A DNA stretch of 38,064 nucleotides from a virus (IMGVR_UViG_2526164598_000023), one strand, 5' to 3'; shown: positions 1-38,064, counted from the stretch's first letter. A program made the numbers and translations. The notes: a model not told the origin generated them from the sequence alone.

Positions 1-573
1 TTACATTTCAGGTTGCGTTATGACAGTCCCAACAGGGTGGTAGCGGTAGATCGTTGACAGTCCAATATCATAGATAATTGCCAGCCGCTTTCTGTCATAC
101 CCTTTCTGGAGCAATCTTGCGATCTGCTCATGCTGCTCCTTCGTCAGTTTCGGGCGACGTCCTCCAACTCTCCCTTGTGCTCGCGCAGCAGCCAGTCCTG
201 CCAGCGTGCGCTCAACTATCAGTTCACGCTCCATTTCTGCCAGTGCACCCATCATATGAAAAAAGAACCTTCCCATCGGAGTGCTGGTATCGATTGAATC
301 CGTCAGACTGCGAAAATTGACACCTTTTGCGCGTAGCTCTTCTGTGAGAGCAATGAGGTGTTTCATTCTTCTACCCAACCGATCCAGCTTCCAGACCACC
401 AATGTATCCCCTCTTTTAAGGCACTTTAAAGCGCGTTTCAGGCCTGGTCGTTCCGACTTGGTTCCGCTCATTTTGTCCTCAAAAATCTGTTCACATCCTG
501 CGCACATTAATGCATTGCGTTGCAAATCTGTGTTTTGGTCATTTGTTGACACACGTATGTAGCCAATCAGCAT
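1..573 (-). CDS. gin: Serine DNA invertase, Gin/Pin/Hin family (complete, 190 aa)
   Basis: From ATG at 571-573 (minus) the translation begins MLIGYIRVSTNDQNTDLQRNAL, the serine-recombinase catalytic N-terminus, and continues through GDTLVVWKLDRLGR and a C-terminal HTH. AGGGAG-type RBS just upstream; stop at 1-3. The longer track ORF 1..768 is an unsupported upstream extension. Confidence 0.93.
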   Translation of the reverse strand: MLIGYIRVSTNDQNTDLQRNALMCAGCEQIFEDKMSGTKSERPGLKRALKCLKRGDTLVVWKLDRLGRRMKHLIALTEELRAKGVNFRSLTDSIDTSTPMGRFFFHMMGALAEMERELIVERTLAGLAAARAQGRVGGRRPKLTKEQHEQIARLLQKGYDRKRLAIIYDIGLSTIYRYHPVGTVITQPEM

Positions 574-627
574 TAAAAATACTCCCTTTTGAGTGGTTAA
601 AGTACTGAGATAATGTGGGGAGGATTT

Positions 628-653
628 GAGAGATAAACGTTGGTTTGGGGGAA
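628..653. other. hix/gix-like 26-bp recombination site 1, inverted relative to sites 2 and 3
   Basis: Minus-strand reading is TTCCCCCAAACC-AA-CGTTTATCTCTC. Left half and core match the remembered hixL TTCTTGAAAACC-AA-GGTTTTTGATAA. It sits exactly at the boundary where homology between the fibre cassettes begins. Confidence 0.55.
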
Positions 654-771
654 GGCTCTGCACTGCCCGTTGGTGTGCCTGTTCCATGGCCCTCAGCCAC
701 ACCACCAACGGGCTGGCTGAAATGTAACGGTGCAGCATTTTCTTCTGAAATGTACCCCAATCTGGCAAAGG
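642..771 (+). repeat. About 130-bp block, near-identical inverted copy of 2070..2199
   Basis: Reverse complement of 642-771 matches 2070-2199 with a single mismatch by eye. The third copy (2584..2713) has about 8 mismatches. Confidence 0.8.
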
Positions 772-1120
772 CCTACCCCACCAATAAATTACCGGATTTA
801 CGCGGTGAATTTATCCGTGGCTGGGATGATGGGCGAGGAATTGATGCGGCACGCGCTTTATTGAGCATTCAAAACGGGATGTTGGAAAAACACCGCCATA
901 TTGTTGTAGCTAACGATGGATATGACACAAAAGATGAATGGGAGTTGGCTACGATTTTCAAAAAACATATACACAAGGCAGGGGGCTTGATGCCACAAAT
1001 ACAGGAGGGAGTTTGATTCCATCACCAACGCTTCATTCACGAGGAAGTATTGGTAACACAGGTGGTAGTGAAACCCGCCCCCGCAATATTGCATTTAACT
1101 ATATCGTGAGGGCGGCTTAG
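645..1120 (+). pseudogene. Silent tail-fibre C-terminal cassette V3, frame-disrupted
   Basis: Begins at the conserved block with no start codon of its own (in-frame TGA at 627-629). The conserved N-terminal part is in one frame (645..1016) and the conserved C-terminal end ETRPRNIAFNYIVRAA is in another (938..1120). An A6 run (960-965) and a G5 run (981-985) lie in the overlap. Confidence 0.55.
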
Positions 1121-1126
1121 TTATAT

Positions 1127-1738
1127 TCAACTGGCTGCTGCCAGTGGTATTTCCGGCAAGTTGATATCTGGTACCATGTTTATATCCATTGCGTTCAGCG
1201 CGTCTATATAATCCAGCACGGCATTAAGCCGGGTGGTTTCTGCCTGCGTCAACTTCCGCCCGGCCTGCAACTTCAACTGAATCAGACTTATGGAAGCCAT
1301 TGCCGCATCAGCCAGTGACTGGCGCTTGGTTTCTGCCGCTTCTACTGCGGCACGATGTTGTGCCTCAGTATCTGTCACCCATTTTTCACCATCCCATTTA
1401 TCGTATGGTGTTAACGGGGCGATAGTGGTTGTAGTTTTCGGGTAGTCACCCAGCGCCGTGATTTCTTCGGTGTTTCCCGTGTCAGTGCTATAGACGGTTT
1501 CACCACGATGGTCTGGCGCATACTCCCATGAACTTAAATTCTCCGAACGGCGGATAGCATAGCCCGCTTTATGTGCGCCCGGGGCATCTAAACAGGAATT
1601 TGCCGGAATACCGACACCCACAGCAAGATATTCAGTTGATTCGGAAATATATTCCCGTGTCTCACCATCATAGTTATAAACGACGATGTTTCCTGCCTGT
1701 ACGGCAATAAGGTCATCATTTAATATCGCGTTATTCAT
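1127..1738 (-). CDS. Tail fibre assembly protein (Tfa, Mu U / P2 G-like), 203 aa
   Basis: C-terminal region SLADAAMASISLIQLKLQAGRKLTQAETTRLNAVLDYIDALNAMD is the typical tail-fibre chaperone domain. Its ATG overlaps the V2 cassette stop as ATGA (1735-1738). Confidence 0.85.
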   Translation of the reverse strand: MNNAILNDDLIAVQAGNIVVYNYDGETREYISESTEYLAVGVGIPANSCLDAPGAHKAGYAIRRSENLSSWEYAPDHRGETVYSTDTGNTEEITALGDYPKTTTTIAPLTPYDKWDGEKWVTDTEAQHRAAVEAAETKRQSLADAAMASISLIQLKLQAGRKLTQAETTRLNAVLDYIDALNAMDINMVPDINLPEIPLAAAS

Positions 1739-2196
1739 AATGCGGTTCTCACAATATAATTGAAGGCAATATTGCGTGGGCGGTTTTCATTCCCATCTGA
1801 GGATTCCGTTCTGTATTGACTGGTAAATCTACCGTTAATTGCACCTTGCCGGACGGCGTTATCTGTCGACAACAGACTATCCCCTCTTTTGTCATTTGGC
1901 ACCAGTACCGTGTTATCCCACGCATCCCATGACCGAATATTATGATAATGACTTCCTGTTAACCACCCCTGCATGCTTAAGATGCCCCTTCCGGCATCCA
2001 CCCCGCGCCCATCATCCCAGCCACGGATAAACTCACCGCGTAAATCAGGTAATTTTAACGTTGGGTAAACCTTTGCCAGATTTGGGTACATTTCAGAAGA
2101 AAATGCTGCACCGTTACATTTCAGCCAGCCCGTTGGTGGTGTGGCTGAGGGCCATGGAACAGGCACACCAACGGGCAGTGCAGAGCCTTCCCCCAA
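1735..2196 (-). CDS. Silent tail-fibre C-terminal cassette V2 (no own ATG; first codon TTG inside hix-like site 2)
   Basis: Starts with the conserved block and ends NENRPRNIAFNYIVRTAL. Immediately follows the stop of the expressed fibre and is followed by tfa. Confidence 0.7.
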   Translation of the reverse strand: MGEGSALPVGVPVPWPSATPPTGWLKCNGAAFSSEMYPNLAKVYPTLKLPDLRGEFIRGWDDGRGVDAGRGILSMQGWLTGSHYHNIRSWDAWDNTVLVPNDKRGDSLLSTDNAVRQGAINGRFTSQYRTESSDGNENRPRNIAFNYIVRTAL

Positions 2197-25066: not shown

Positions 25067-25837
25067 ATGAAAATGCAGACATTACCCATCGTTCCATGGA
25101 TTGGTGGCAAACGCCGCCTTGCAAAACACATCCTGCCGCTGTTTCCGGCGCATGAATGTTATGTGGAGCCGTTTTGTGGGGCAGCAGCGCTCTATTTTCT
25201 TAAGGTACCCGGCAAGATCGAAGTCATTAATGATATCAACGGTGAACTGGTGAACCTGTATCGGGTGGTAAAACATCATCTGGAAGAATTTGTACGCCAG
25301 TTCAAATGGGCGCTGGTCAGCCGGCAGATCTACAAATGGCTGCAGATCACCCCGGAAGAAACACTGACGGATATCCAGCGTGCAGCACGGTTCTACTACC
25401 TTCAGAAGCAGGCGTTTGGAGGCAAGGTGGCGGAGCACAGCTTTGGTACCTCCACCATATCCCCGCCACGCTTCAACCTGCTGCGTATTGAAGAAGAACT
25501 GTCAGCGGCACACCTGCGGCTTTCCAGAACGGTCATAGAACACATGGACTGGCAACAGTGCATAGAACGATATGATCGCCCGCATACGTTGTTCTACTGT
25601 GACCCTCCATACTGGGGAACGGAAGGTTATGGTGTGGAGTTCGGACTAGAAAATTATGATCATATGGCAGATTTAGCACGCAGGATCAAAGGGAAGATGA
25701 TTATATCGGTGAACGATATCCCGGAAATGCGGCAGGCATTCAACGGTCTAAATATTCAGTCGGTTGATATCAGCTACAACCTCAAGATCACTGGCAAATC
25801 CAGTCGCAAGAAGGAACTCATTATCCTCAACTTTTGA
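25067..25837 (+). CDS. N6-adenine DNA methyltransferase, Dam-like, orphan (no adjacent restriction endonuclease), 256 aa
   Basis: AdoMet motif EPFCGAAALYF near the N-terminus and catalytic DPPY (YCDPPYWGTEGYG). Confidence 0.85.
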   Translation: MKMQTLPIVPWIGGKRRLAKHILPLFPAHECYVEPFCGAAALYFLKVPGKIEVINDINGELVNLYRVVKHHLEEFVRQFKWALVSRQIYKWLQITPEETLTDIQRAARFYYLQKQAFGGKVAEHSFGTSTISPPRFNLLRIEEELSAAHLRLSRTVIEHMDWQQCIERYDRPHTLFYCDPPYWGTEGYGVEFGLENYDHMADLARRIKGKMIISVNDIPEMRQAFNGLNIQSVDISYNLKITGKSSRKKELIILNF

Positions 25838-27032
25838 CCGAATAGTAAGACTTCATGCAGTGAATCAAGTACTGCATGAAGTCAAGGGCTGGTTTTGTGT
25901 ACCAAAAATAAACAGTGATAGCGGTAATAATTCCCATAACTAGAACACCACGTATAATCCAGAACGTACGTTTCTGCGTGTCTAGTCGCGCAGAAATACT
26001 GCTAAATACACCAGCCACGTCATCTTTAATGAAGGAATATTCCTTATTAATCTGTTTTTCTTTGTATTCAATTTCTTCGCCTAAGGCCTTTATAGATTGC
26101 ATCTGGTTCGAAAGTGCCAGCCAGATTAACGTTGCAGCAAAAATGCATCCCAGAAGAATTATTGTGTTTGTTATCCCTTGGCCTGACCATTTCGTAGCCA
26201 CTTTGAATTGGGTAGCTACGATAACAGAGGCAACAGGAATGCCAAGTATATGGTTCTGGATATCTGAAAACGCTTTGTGGATTTTACCCATTTCTTCGAC
26301 TTTTGCAGCACGCAGTTGATCCATTACTTTGTCATAAGAGAATCCAGAAGAGTAGATACGATACCCTTTCAGAAACTTTTCATGCAGACGCTGAATATTG
26401 TCCAGTAAATAAGCGAATACTAGAGGTGAATCAATTCCATCACTAACTGCTTGGATACTTTCAATCAGAATATCTAGCTTCTGATCCTTATGGGTATCAT
26501 CATTGAAACAAGCTATAAGGTTATCAAGATACTCTCTTTGCAAATTTTGTACATTTTCTGCAGCGAAGTGCGGTAATAGCTTGATAACTTCTTTTTTCAG
26601 AAAAACTAACTGACAAGTTGAGTTATCAAAGTAGGCCGCGGCCTCTTTTAGCAGGTTAACGAACTCGAGAATCTTCCGGTAGTTGCTGATGAAAACGGGG
26701 ATATCTTCATCATCATTACGAAACTTTGTTTCTAGGATGAAGTAATTAGCTGGCTCAAGGCACTGATGCTTTGGAGCATTTAGCAATTTTTCATGGGTGG
26801 AAAACACAAGTCCCAGTCCACTCCGTGGTGACGTCACACGTAGGATGATCGTGTTACCTGGAGCGATAGTGCCTGTATCAATAGAAAGACCATATTCACG
26901 AGGATCATCAAGCAAAGTATCAACCAGATCACAATCGGACTGATCTAAGAGCAACAGCGAACCGACACGAAACCCCTCTTGGAATTCCATACGACGATAC
27001 AGATCTGTCAGCATCTCAAATGAAATCGCCAC
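25827..27032 (-). CDS. Membrane protein with soluble N-terminal domain and two C-terminal TM helices, 401 aa
   Basis: GTG start at 27030-27032 two nt after the upstream stop, with a GAGG RBS (alternative ATG at 27014). TM helices ITNTIILLGCIFAATLIWLALS and FWIIRGVLVMGIITAITVYFWY; AT-rich codon usage. Confidence 0.65.
   Translation of the reverse strand: MAISFEMLTDLYRRMEFQEGFRVGSLLLLDQSDCDLVDTLLDDPREYGLSIDTGTIAPGNTIILRVTSPRSGLGLVFSTHEKLLNAPKHQCLEPANYFILETKFRNDDEDIPVFISNYRKILEFVNLLKEAAAYFDNSTCQLVFLKKEVIKLLPHFAAENVQNLQREYLDNLIACFNDDTHKDQKLDILIESIQAVSDGIDSPLVFAYLLDNIQRLHEKFLKGYRIYSSGFSYDKVMDQLRAAKVEEMGKIHKAFSDIQNHILGIPVASVIVATQFKVATKWSGQGITNTIILLGCIFAATLIWLALSNQMQSIKALGEEIEYKEKQINKEYSFIKDDVAGVFSSISARLDTQKRTFWIIRGVLVMGIITAITVYFWYTKPALDFMQYLIHCMKSYYSVKS
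25849..25883. repeat. Perfect 13-bp inverted repeat with 9-nt spacer
   Basis: GACTTCATGCAGT-gaatcaagt-ACTGCATGAAGTC, 12 nt past the methyltransferase stop and inside the last codons of the convergent 401-aa gene, at the boundary where composition becomes AT-rich. Confidence 0.7.
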
Positions 27033-27034
27033 GA

Positions 27035-28042
27035 TTAAACCTCAGTCATCCACATTTCCCTAAATTCTTCAGGTACATTACGTAGGGTGATAATATTTGT
27101 TTCCGGATCATAATCAATATAGCCTTCAGTTTTCCCTTCCCGGTCAAACTTAAGTTCCCAATATTTAGACTTGCCTTTAAAAGATACCAGAGCCCGAATG
27201 ACTCGACCATCAGGAACGAAGCCATCCGATAACTCCAACTCTTCAGCAGCAAGTTTACCAGATAACTCCTCGGGAGCCTGGGGCCAAATGGCATTAACAA
27301 GGGTTTCAAGACTAAGTGGTTCACCAGCCTTACTTAGTGCATGTAAGTGTTCAAACGCACTCTTAAGAAATGCATCTTTTTCAGCGCCGTCAAGTCCTTT
27401 CTCTGCCGCAAATGCTTTTAAAACGTCACGTAACTTTTCAGACTCTCGTTTGGCGATTAAGACATCATTACAGCCGAGGAACTGTTTAAAATAGTTTGAA
27501 ACATTACCTTGCCCCTTAAGAAAACTGATATAGCGCTCTGCGCCACTTTCCCACGCGGTTAAGTCAATGCGCCCAGCCATACGCAGCTTAGCAATATCAA
27601 GATAGGTACTATCTTGGATGTTAAAATCATCTGTGACAGTGGATCCAATGGTAGCGCTTACAATAGCTATCAACAGGTGTTCATTGTGTCCTATCACGAT
27701 ATTTGCAAAAAGAACATAACCACCAGTAGCCATGTTTTCTCGCTGAGAACGTTCCGTCAGGTGATGCATCATTCGGCAGGAACTTTGGTAGAAATCATCA
27801 ACACCTTCGAGAAAGTCCCCAGCCATTCGTTCCATAGGATAGTTATCCGTATCGCCTTCAAAATAGCCATAACCTTTACCTGTGCGTCCTGCATATTTTG
27901 CACAAATATCGTTTATAAGGCGCTGGGAGGCTTCAGTAACTAGACCTTCTTCAGGACTCAATCTCTCAGAAGCGTCTCCATTTTGTTGTTTGTCTAAAAT
28001 GTGAACTACAACGTGTTTAACTTCAATGGTCTGCTCAGACAT
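27035..28042 (-). CDS. NdpA/YejK-like nucleoid-associated protein homologue, 335 aa
   Basis: Segments GGYVLFANI..HLLIAIVS, YLDIAKLRMAGRIDLTAWESGAERYISFLKGQ and the C-terminal YIDYDPETNIITLRNVP resemble E. coli YejK as I remember it; same length (335 aa). ATG 28040-28042 with AAGGTGGA RBS. Confidence 0.65.
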   Translation of the reverse strand: MSEQTIEVKHVVVHILDKQQNGDASERLSPEEGLVTEASQRLINDICAKYAGRTGKGYGYFEGDTDNYPMERMAGDFLEGVDDFYQSSCRMMHHLTERSQRENMATGGYVLFANIVIGHNEHLLIAIVSATIGSTVTDDFNIQDSTYLDIAKLRMAGRIDLTAWESGAERYISFLKGQGNVSNYFKQFLGCNDVLIAKRESEKLRDVLKAFAAEKGLDGAEKDAFLKSAFEHLHALSKAGEPLSLETLVNAIWPQAPEELSGKLAAEELELSDGFVPDGRVIRALVSFKGKSKYWELKFDREGKTEGYIDYDPETNIITLRNVPEEFREMWMTEV

Positions 28043-28112
28043 TAGCTATCCACCTTATTTTTTATTGCTTAATGGCAAATAATTTCTGCTATATGTTCTC
28101 GTTAGGAACACA

Positions 28113-28520
28113 TTAACCCACATTTTTTAACCGCTCAATCGTTGCGGATAATTCCTTCAGTTGTTTTTCCATCTCAATCACACGCTGTTTTTCTTCAGCG
28201 CCTCGCATGAGATCTCGCCGAACCTCAGGATCTAACTGGTTTAGAAGTTCAAGCATTTTAAGGTCTGACGGGCTGAATTGATGTTGTGTTGGTACAGCAA
28301 CAATTTCTTTAGATGGAATATGTTCTTTACCGGTAAGTAGCCAATCGATCGATACACCCAAATGGGTGCTTAGCGCAACAAGAGCCTCTGCGTTTGGTTC
28401 TCTCTCTCCACGCAAATAGTTTTGAAGTGAGCGATATGGAATTTTTGATAAGTTAGATAATGCCTTTATTGTCATGCCATTAGCATCCATCACTTCACGC
28501 AATCTCTCTTTTGTACTCAT
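28113..28520 (-). CDS. Phage repressor, HTH (XRE-like), 135 aa
   Basis: Start moved to ATG 28518-28520 (MSTKERLREVMDANGMTIKALSNLSKIPYRSLQNYLRGER), an HTH; divergent from the ner-like gene. Confidence 0.7.
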   Translation of the reverse strand: MSTKERLREVMDANGMTIKALSNLSKIPYRSLQNYLRGEREPNAEALVALSTHLGVSIDWLLTGKEHIPSKEIVAVPTQHQFSPSDLKMLELLNQLDPEVRRDLMRGAEEKQRVIEMEKQLKELSATIERLKNVG

Positions 28521-28539
28521 TTGAACATATCTCAATTTG

Positions 28540-28559
28540 ACACACTCATTTGGGTGTGT
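28540..28559. promoter_or_regulatory. Candidate operator dyad ACACAC-N8-GTGTGT in the repressor/ner divergent region
   Basis: 6-bp inverted arms separated by 8 nt, centred between the two divergent starts. Confidence 0.3.
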
Positions 28560-28608
28560 ACAATAGACCCAATAGAGTACATCATAACCTAACAGGAACA
28601 CGGTGCAT

Positions 28609-36659: not shown

Positions 36660-36792
<133 letters not shown>

Positions 36793-36819
36793 CAGAAATG
36801 TCGGATAAGGCACCGCTGA

Positions 36820-38064
36820 TTACTGATACACCGGCAGTAAATTAAAGCTCGATAAAATATGGACCAGTGCGTTGCCAACGCCAAACACCAGAATCAGCGT
36901 AATCATCGGCTTGCCGCCCCAGACGCGGAATTTCGGGCTGCCAAAGCGTTTACGCGATGCGCGGGCTAACAGCGCCGGAACAATTGCCGCCCAGATGGTA
37001 GCTGCTAAACCAGCATAACCAATGGCGTACAGGAATCCGTTCGGGAACAGTAGACCACCCACAACAGGCGGGGCAAAGGTCAGCAATGCCGTTTTCAAGC
37101 GCCCCAGGGCTGAGTCATCGAAACCAAACAGATCTGCCAGATAGTCAAACAAACCCAGCGTTACGCCAAGGAACGAACTCGCTACCGCAAAGTTTGAGAA
37201 CACGACCAGCAGAAGGTCCAGGCTACGGCTGTTCAGCACGCCGCTTAATGCCTGTACCAGCACATCAATATTACCGCCCTTCTCTGCAATACCGATAAAC
37301 TCCGGACGCGGGATGTTACCCATCGTCGCCAGCAACCAGATGGTATACAGCGCCAGTGCCATCAGCGTACCGTACACCAGGCATTTCACGATGGTTTTCG
37401 GATCTTTGCCGTAATACTTCATCAGGCTTGGCACGTTACCGTGATAACCAAACGACGCCAGGCAGAACGGCAATGTCATCAGCAGATACGGCGCATAAGA
37501 TGCATTGCTTTCTGCAACGTTGAACAATGTCGCAGGCTGCACATGCCCCAACAGGCTGCCAAAGGTGAGGAAGAAGGTAATGACTTTCGCCCCCAGCACA
37601 ATCGCCGTCATGCGGCTGACGGCCTTAGTACTCAACCACACCACAAACGCTACCAGCAGTGCAAAACCAAAACCCGCCGCCCGTGCCGGGACGTTTAGCG
37701 ACATCTCTGCGAAGGTGTGATGCAGAATTGAACCACTGGCAGAAATATAGGCATAGGTCAGGATATAGAGCACAAAGGCAATGGAAATACCGTTGACCAC
37801 GTTCCAGCCTTTGCCCAGCAAATCTTTGGTGATGGTGTCAAAACTCGAACCGATTCGGTAATTCAGGTTAGCTTCCAGAATCATCAAGCCGGAATGCAGC
37901 ATACAGAACCAGGTAAAGATCAGCGCCGCCATTGACCAGAAAAACCACGCCCCGGACATGACCACTGGCAGAGAAAACATCCCTGCGCCAATAATGGTGC
38001 CGCCGATAATCACCACGCCGCCAAGCAGCGACGGTGACGTTTGGGTGGTGGTTAGTGTTGCCAT
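36820..38064 (-). CDS. mtr: Tryptophan-specific transport protein Mtr (host gene, complete, 414 aa)
   Basis: Translation [43 protein letters not shown]... matches E. coli Mtr; ATG is the last three bases of the window. Confidence 0.95.

Follow-up and report, generated by a model that had tools for sequence, protein, structure and literature searches.

A stretch of viral DNA of 38,064 nucleotides (IMGVR_UViG_2526164598_000023; this whole stretch is the window below) carries two minus-strand genes directly downstream of a prophage repressor gene, and the question raised by this locus is whether the two genes form a defence or exclusion system and, if so, whether that system has been described before. 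An earlier reading made from the DNA alone (the sequence-only reading) had proposed an undescribed module consisting of a paralogue of the nucleoid-associated protein (NAP) NdpA/YejK, here called gene A, and a membrane protein with two transmembrane (TM) helices, here called gene B. The feature is real and was correctly delimited, and both of its partners are homologous to those of DS-1, an E. coli pair validated against phage. We consider it likely from these comparisons that the cassette is a mobile anti-phage pair of the DS-1 or type II PANGU kind, carried as prophage cargo and probably expressed by transcription that continues from the repressor gene. It is not a new category of system, its novelty having been overtaken by work of 2025-2026.

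Relationship of the pair to DS-1 and type II PANGU

The two genes are the open reading frames given by the sequence-only reading, and RefSeq annotates the same coding sequences for gene A, gene B and the repressor (WP_000003711.1, WP_001007985.1 and WP_000104670.1, in that order) in 18 E. coli chromosomes matching at 99.6% identity or more. Gene A begins with ATG behind a strong Shine-Dalgarno sequence (AAGGTGG), and its stop codon (27037-27035) is separated by 2 nucleotides (nt) from the GTG of gene B (27032-27030), which has GAGG 7 nt upstream. The translational coupling that had been claimed is compatible with this tight spacing, although the stop codon and the GTG do not overlap. The gene A product matched the Pfam family NA37 with an E value of 1e-80 over residues 12-327 of 335. 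Because its score of 186.2 bits against NF001557, the equivalog model of housekeeping YejK, falls below the 341-bit cut-off, it is a YejK paralogue, as had been read from the sequence. Its identity to the E. coli chromosomal YejK is 26% and, unlike that chromosomal YejK/NdpA (PDB 9be2), it is carried on mobile DNA and always coupled to a membrane partner.

The 401-aa product of gene B has no Pfam family at E <= 0.01 and matched phrog_5023 with an E value of 6e-143. Kyte-Doolittle hydropathy and an AlphaFold2 (AF2) model agree on the architecture previously proposed for it, a soluble N-terminal domain followed by two C-terminal TM helices. In the model, the predicted local distance difference test (pLDDT) score is about 90 over residues 1-220, and residues 1-255 have a net charge of -11 and an isoelectric point (pI) of 5.0, making the N-terminal domain a candidate for NAP binding by analogy with the 'DMK' domain described below. 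The most conserved motif of the family, GY..F.SGFSYDK..DQLR.AKVEEMGKIHK.FSDIQN.ILGIPVA, lies in the long helix of residues 213-275 leading to the membrane and is partly common to DS-1B (hhalign columns). The invariant columns of the family alignment run from G223 to K277, with a weaker but highly conserved hydrophobic stretch at residues 262-276. Directly after TM helix 1 the alignment contains invariant N309 and Q310, and AF2 helices in the C-terminal part span residues 285-331 and 333-378. With this topology the charged hairpin between the two TM helices would be on the far side of the membrane.

DS-1 came from DefensePredictor (bioRxiv January 2025; Science 2026, PMC13092281), and the 'YejK nucleoid-associated domain' is among the domains newly validated in defence by that study. 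Two NCBIfam models were built from DS-1, namely NF053868 (DS1_1, 'nucleoid-associated anti-phage protein') and NF053869 (DS1_2, 'anti-phage protein'). Gene A matched the first (63.7 bits, E 1.4e-17) and gene B the second (75.9 bits, E 3e-21), both significantly, yet under the respective equivalog cut-offs of 330 and 315 bits. These matches extend across the two families, with DS1_1 matched by 24 of 24 sampled relatives of gene A and DS1_2 by 24 of 24 sampled relatives of gene B (best E 4e-27). Direct comparison used the DS-1A (WP_000355468.1) and DS-1B (WP_000150292.1) sequences from the DefensePredictor supplement. By BLASTP, gene A is 23% identical to DS-1A (E 8e-9), in an alignment beginning at DS-1A residue 64, and gene B is 23% identical to DS-1B (E 6e-10), while hhalign of the gene B family against DS-1B gave a probability of 94.4% over 268 columns. 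The arrangement is also alike: in DS-1 the NA37/YejK gene comes first and is followed, after the same 2-nt spacing (220602-221777 and 221780-222994), by a partner of about 400 residues (DS-1B, 404 aa) with hydrophobic C-terminal helices, although the hydrophobic segments of DS-1B are weaker than those of gene B and none reached the Kyte-Doolittle threshold used. A 40% identical NAP (WP_077474557.1) was independently predicted to be defensive by DefensePredictor; the WP accessions of the window proteins were not found in the available portion of its supplements.

A second likeness is to type II PANGU, in which a YejK-like NAP (Pag2A) acts with Pag2B, a protein that begins with an acidic domain ('DMK') and ends in a TM domain (Li et al., bioRxiv April 2026, 10.64898/2026.04.06.716658). 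According to this preprint, both genes are required and infection is aborted; Pag2A fused to green fluorescent protein leaves the nucleoid and disperses into the cytoplasm when T4 infects; Pag2A and the DMK domain bind each other with a dissociation constant of 19 nM; and T4 escapes through denA (EndoII) mutations that prevent degradation of the host genome. The single genes and the pair are all non-toxic, and the NAP is the activator. Like the cassette, type II PANGU is bicistronic, includes an E. coli example and has a wide, horizontally spread range in Pseudomonadota. The operon definition used there, an NA37 NAP with a neighbouring gene less than 40 bp away, describes the window pair as well (2-nt gap, with the linkage retained in the loci described below), and the partner architecture fits gene B in its mildly acidic soluble domain and two TM helices. 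The PANGU operons were chosen near known defence genes, whereas the cassette is prophage cargo beside a repressor, and the PANGU N-terminal domain is acidic and DNA-mimicking, whereas the acidity of gene B is modest. Type I PANGU, which pairs Pag1A with Pag1B, shares the NA37 sensor family and the proposed trigger, host genome degradation, but its effector Pag1B (a GRel toxSAS) is a soluble alarmone synthetase and not a membrane protein, with an enzymatic domain not homologous to gene B. By analogy with these systems, gene A is predicted to be the sensor (Pag2A- or DS-1A-like) and gene B the effector (Pag2B- or DS-1B-like). The window pair could belong to the tested PANGU-Ecu family, to the DS-1 family or to a third one, and the tested E. 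coli 'upec' system may in turn belong with the window pair, with DS-1 or with a third E. coli subtype that has 344-aa NAPs.

The sequence-only reading had compared the locus with lambda cI-rexA-rexB, whose Rex proteins bring about abortive exclusion of superinfecting phages. As in lambda, two genes for one cytoplasmic and one membrane component follow the repressor gene and would be expressed with it in the lysogen. The parallel stands for position and logic and ends there: RexA and RexB gave no Pfam match to gene A or gene B at E <= 0.01, RexB spans the membrane with four TM helices and lacks a large soluble domain, and the sensor of the cassette is a YejK paralogue.

Several points weigh against placing the cassette with DS-1 and type II PANGU. 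The scores of the two partners are four- to fivefold below the NCBIfam equivalog cut-offs (64 against 330 and 76 against 315 bits) with only about 23% identity to DS-1 for each, and gene A, at 186 bits with the housekeeping YejK model, is nearer to that protein than to DS-1A. DS-1A (391 aa) also has an N-terminal zinc-ribbon extension of about 40 residues (aa 1-40, CxxC...CxxC) that gene A does not have. The acidity of the gene B N-terminal domain is moderate, DNA mimicry not being evident by composition alone, and the window pair was set beside Pag2A and Pag2B by description and not by sequence. Even in the validated system the mode of action of Pag2B is not settled (10.64898/2026.04.06.716658). 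PADLOC v2, lacking a model for such a pair, left it undetected; a sporadic KwaA match is discussed below. Finally, a defence role of this subfamily is proposed by homology, and its co-transcription with the repressor is proposed from a missing terminator. Given the low identity and the sub-cut-off scores, the cassette represents a divergent subfamily and not a DS-1 equivalog.

Taken together, homology to validated systems supports the proposed accessory module of a DNA-binding and a membrane protein, while the claim that the pairing was undescribed did not survive, given that both DS-1 models match and that type II PANGU has the same architecture. The pair thus matches a described system as to kind, but not as to exact subfamily.

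Operon conservation and carriage on mobile DNA

With a profile built from relatives of gene B, 80 loci were collected in different species of alpha-, beta- and gamma-proteobacteria. In 76 of these the next gene upstream, in the same orientation, belongs to NA37; of the remaining four, three have only a truncated fragment of gene B and one has the gene at the end of a contig. Over 73 loci, the pairwise identity matrices of A and B correlated with r = 0.92, a value reached in none of 500 Mantel permutations. The pairing of a YejK-like protein with a membrane protein is therefore a conserved operon and not chance, and the co-occurrence across genomes that had been suggested as a check was found. 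The gene B family comprises about 1270 clusters at 50% identity.

Among 5426 complete E. coli genomes, 19 contain the cassette, in each case as a single chromosomal copy, while 48 further complete E. coli genomes contain a related prophage without it; phage PhiKM and other sequenced Bcepmuvirus records also have none. BcepMu-like prophages host only about 7 of the 80 loci, with the others adjoining the lambdoid antiterminator gene Q, tyrosine integrases or glmS, and these varied neighbours indicate that the cassette moves between mobile elements. In E. coli, Salmonella, Klebsiella and related bacteria, the branch occupies the repressor-adjacent slot of Bcepmuvirus-like phages. No plasmid carrying the exact cassette was matched by megablast, and protein search found a Klebsiella plasmid version that is 77-87% identical.

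Within the window, the segment between the Dam methylase gene and the repressor gene reads as cargo and not as phage core. Its GC content (25840-28092) is 41.2%, compared with 55.5 +/- 2.6% (minimum 47.8%) in 608 other segments of the same length, which bears out the AT-richness noted earlier with the correction that the repressor gene is equally low (41.4%) and the low-GC tract reaches about 28600. Recent acquisition had been proposed on composition; alignment with the prophage of E. coli HH107 supports the cargo reading, as homology stops a few nt past the Dam stop codon and resumes at about 28093, some 20 nt after the repressor stop codon, and the HH107 slot holds one unrelated 175-aa gene instead (locus record L001, 6286-6813, minus strand). 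Of the spacer between the repressor gene and gene A, the repressor-proximal 20 nt or so are thus conserved in HH107 and the other 50 nt or so are cargo. Between repressor and pair, a BcepMu-like prophage of Pectobacterium encodes uncharacterised proteins of 194 and 132 aa (L004, 3872-4860, plus strand), and one of Chitinimonas encodes an uncharacterised 342-aa coiled-coil protein (L008, 3835-4863, plus strand). Given these additional genes, the position downstream of the repressor acts as a multi-gene moron slot. The slot genes of HH107, Pectobacterium and Chitinimonas had no Pfam or PADLOC assignment, and they are candidates for further uncharacterised functions expressed in lysogens.

As for expression, consensus scans for a promoter of the cassette's own gave no site above shuffle expectation, and the repressor-gene A spacer contains no intrinsic terminator and no stable RNA structure (RNA fold z = -0.62). 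The repressor gene is probably the source of transcription into the cassette in a lysogen, by read-through.

A proposed sentinel of genome integrity and the alternatives to it

How such a pair would act can be outlined with steps taken from PANGU by homology. In the uninfected cell, the gene A protein would be bound to the nucleoid, apart from its partner. Degradation of host DNA by a superinfecting lytic phage (for example by T4 EndoII) would release it, and the freed protein would bind its membrane-anchored partner, the gene B protein, at the acidic N-terminal domain in the cytoplasm. This binding would turn on the two-TM effector, most likely for membrane permeabilisation or depolarisation, so that the infected cell would no longer support phage growth and abortive infection would protect the lysogen population and its prophage. 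Since a Mu-like phage needs an intact host chromosome as its transposition target, we infer that its own lytic cycle would not trip such a sentinel, which would serve it against T-even-like competitors.

There are other ways to account for the cassette. One stays within NAP-based immunity and makes the subfamily a mechanistically distinct branch, in which the two-TM effector forms a CorA-like gated channel, the helix of residues 213-275 is a switch operated by the YejK paralogue, and the whole was recruited by a transposable phage to guard the host chromosome; we hold this to be unlikely, and such a branch, if real, would differ from the tested PANGU and DS-1 in the range of its triggers or in how it relates to the prophage lytic cycle. 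Entry-site exclusion of the Kiwa type, in which the membrane protein would sense envelope perturbation at injection and deploy the NAP on incoming DNA so as to block replication without killing, appears quite improbable to us. Kiwa is also a two-gene defence of a membrane protein and a non-sequence-specific DNA-binding protein, the PADLOC KwaA model matched gene B at residues 262-394 (E 8e-5), KwaB chains occurred among the sub-significant Foldseek matches of the gene A model (E 0.08-0.6), and the effector mechanism of type II PANGU, being unsettled, leaves room for such action. However, the KwaA match recurred in only 2 of 24 members of the gene B family and none of 24 gene A relatives matched the KwaB hidden Markov model even at E <= 1, so that neither a four-TM protein of KwaA type nor a KwaB with DUF4868 was found in the pair. 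The gene order is opposite as well (KwaA precedes KwaB), and whereas Kiwa blocks replication at entry sites with no abortive infection, type II PANGU aborts infection and its NAP disperses to the cytoplasm, not to entry sites.

Placed as they are in the immunity region of a phage that transposes, the genes could instead serve the phage itself, with a membrane-anchored YejK-like protein remodelling or tethering the nucleoid for replicative transposition, lysogeny maintenance or prophage silencing. It is established that the nucleoid proteins HU, IHF and H-NS act as cofactors when Mu transposes and when it is repressed, and gene A scores higher with the YejK model than with DS1_1. The cassette is nevertheless absent from most of the related prophages and phages and present in unrelated mobile elements, and a service role is unlikely for this reason; the constant pairing with a membrane protein and the fact that both partners have homologues in a validated defence pair also speak against it, and we regard it as very improbable. 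A toxin-antitoxin or addiction cassette, in which gene B would be a constitutive toxin restrained by the NAP and the prophage would be stabilised with no sensing of infection, agrees with two tightly coupled genes on mobile elements, a membrane-active candidate and strong co-variation of the partners. It is hardly credible next to the non-toxicity of the PANGU genes, alone and paired, and to a NAP that is an activator and not an antitoxin; no known toxin-antitoxin family was matched in Pfam or PADLOC, and a chromosomal Mu-like prophage would presumably gain little from post-segregational killing.

With the cassette read as a DS-1 or type II PANGU kind of pair, the locus reveals a large divergent branch of recently described NAP-based defence that annotation has missed, PADLOC v2 having no model, the NCBIfam scores being below cut-off and RefSeq labelling gene B a 'hypothetical protein'. 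The repressor-adjacent prophage slot offers a natural, lysogen-expressed setting for studying this branch, and it bears on what keeps a YejK paralogue separate from housekeeping YejK, on the gating of a membrane effector and on whether phages reliant on an intact host chromosome profit from a genome-integrity sentinel.

The prophage and other features of the locus

The window is a nearly complete Bcepmuvirus-like (BcepMu-like) transposable prophage of E. coli, whose transposase shares 98% identity with its counterpart in Escherichia phage PhiKM and 69% with BcepMu gp09. The arm of late genes extends leftward from about 24850 and the arm of early genes (ner-like, transposase, MuB-like, Gam and Mor) rightward from 28603, and the four genes between the two arms are those for the Dam methylase, gene B, gene A and the repressor. 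The promoter of the early operon, TTGACA-16-TACAAT, lies at 28537-28564 on the plus strand, with the repressor gene divergent from it.

Features of the cassette and its neighbours (positions in the window)
Feature	Position	Strand	Basis
Dam methylase	25067-25837	+	RefSeq coding sequence
AT-rich cargo segment (moron slot), 2.25 kb, Dam methylase stop to repressor stop	25840..28092		GC content; HH107 homology breaks
Gene B, membrane protein, 401 aa, GTG start	25827..27032	-	RefSeq WP_001007985.1
Gene B TM helix 2, about aa 358-383	25884..25961	-	Kyte-Doolittle maximum 1.95
Charged helical hairpin between the TM helices of gene B, about 49 aa	25962-26108	-	Hydropathy and AF2
Gene B TM helix 1, about aa 285-308	26109..26180	-	Kyte-Doolittle maximum 2.33
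Gene B aa 213-275, single long helix leading to the membrane	26208..26396	-	AF2 helix 213-275; alignment
Gene B aa 1-212, soluble alpha/beta and helical N-terminal domain, mildly acidic	26397..27032	-	AF2 pLDDT about 90, mixed strands and helices
Gene A, YejK/NdpA-family (NA37) protein, 335 aa, ATG start	27035..28042	-	RefSeq WP_000003711.1
Spacer, repressor stop to gene A start, 70 nt	28043..28112	-	Terminator scan, fold, HH107 alignment
Prophage repressor, 135 aa, HTH_3 / Phage_CI_repr	28113..28520	-	Pfam HTH_3 E 4e-11, Phage_CI_repr E 5e-6; RefSeq WP_000104670.1

Small inverted repeats lie near both ends of the slot. A hairpin of the form TGTTC-N7-GAACA right after the repressor stop codon (28093-28112; about 6840-6860 in L001) is kept in prophages with different cargo and delimits the variable slot on its right-hand side; its role may be that of a recombination boundary or of a processing signal. 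At the other end, the Dam methylase gene and gene B converge, their 3' ends sharing 11 nt (25827-25837), and an inverted repeat of two perfect 12-bp arms around a loop of 11 nt (25849-25860 / 25872-25883) lies in the last codons of gene B, 12 nt past the Dam stop codon and with no clear U-tract. At the equivalent site near the Dam end, the alternative cargo of HH107 contains a GC-rich hairpin of its own, and such hairpins could be terminators for the convergent transcripts.

Beyond the Bcepmuvirus-like prophages, the cassette was seen beside glmS in four beta- or alpha-proteobacterial genomes (L055, L056, L059 and L063). The glmS region is a classical attachment region of Tn7-type elements, and these copies may be carried on Tn7-like elements. 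In Salmonella Typhi, truncated forms of gene A (266 and 198 aa, clusters P0123 and P0168) occur on hundreds of contigs, which suggests a decayed cassette copy fixed in the lineage. A second E. coli subtype combines a 344-aa NAP about 50% identical to gene A with a partner of about 392 aa that is about 38-40% identical to gene B (P0179-P0186; P0050/P0105), and at least three diverged versions of the pair, DS-1 counted, circulate in E. coli.

The prophage insertion is flanked by the host genes hycH and hyfR, the insertion site being a hycH-family (formate hydrogenlyase maturation) gene beside hyfR (window about 36700-38064; L082, 31192-33296). The interrupted gene is represented by a 63-nt pseudogene remnant on one side of the prophage and by the remaining gene on the other. 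Across the 19 E. coli carriers the cassette lies at widely differing chromosomal coordinates, which fits a transposable phage. At the far prophage end, opposed tail-fibre and tail-fibre-assembly genes stand with a recombinase-family gene (window 1-2000; host record L084, 6028-8270), a layout that, judged by its gene arrangement, is that of an invertible host-range (G-segment-like) region within which the window begins.

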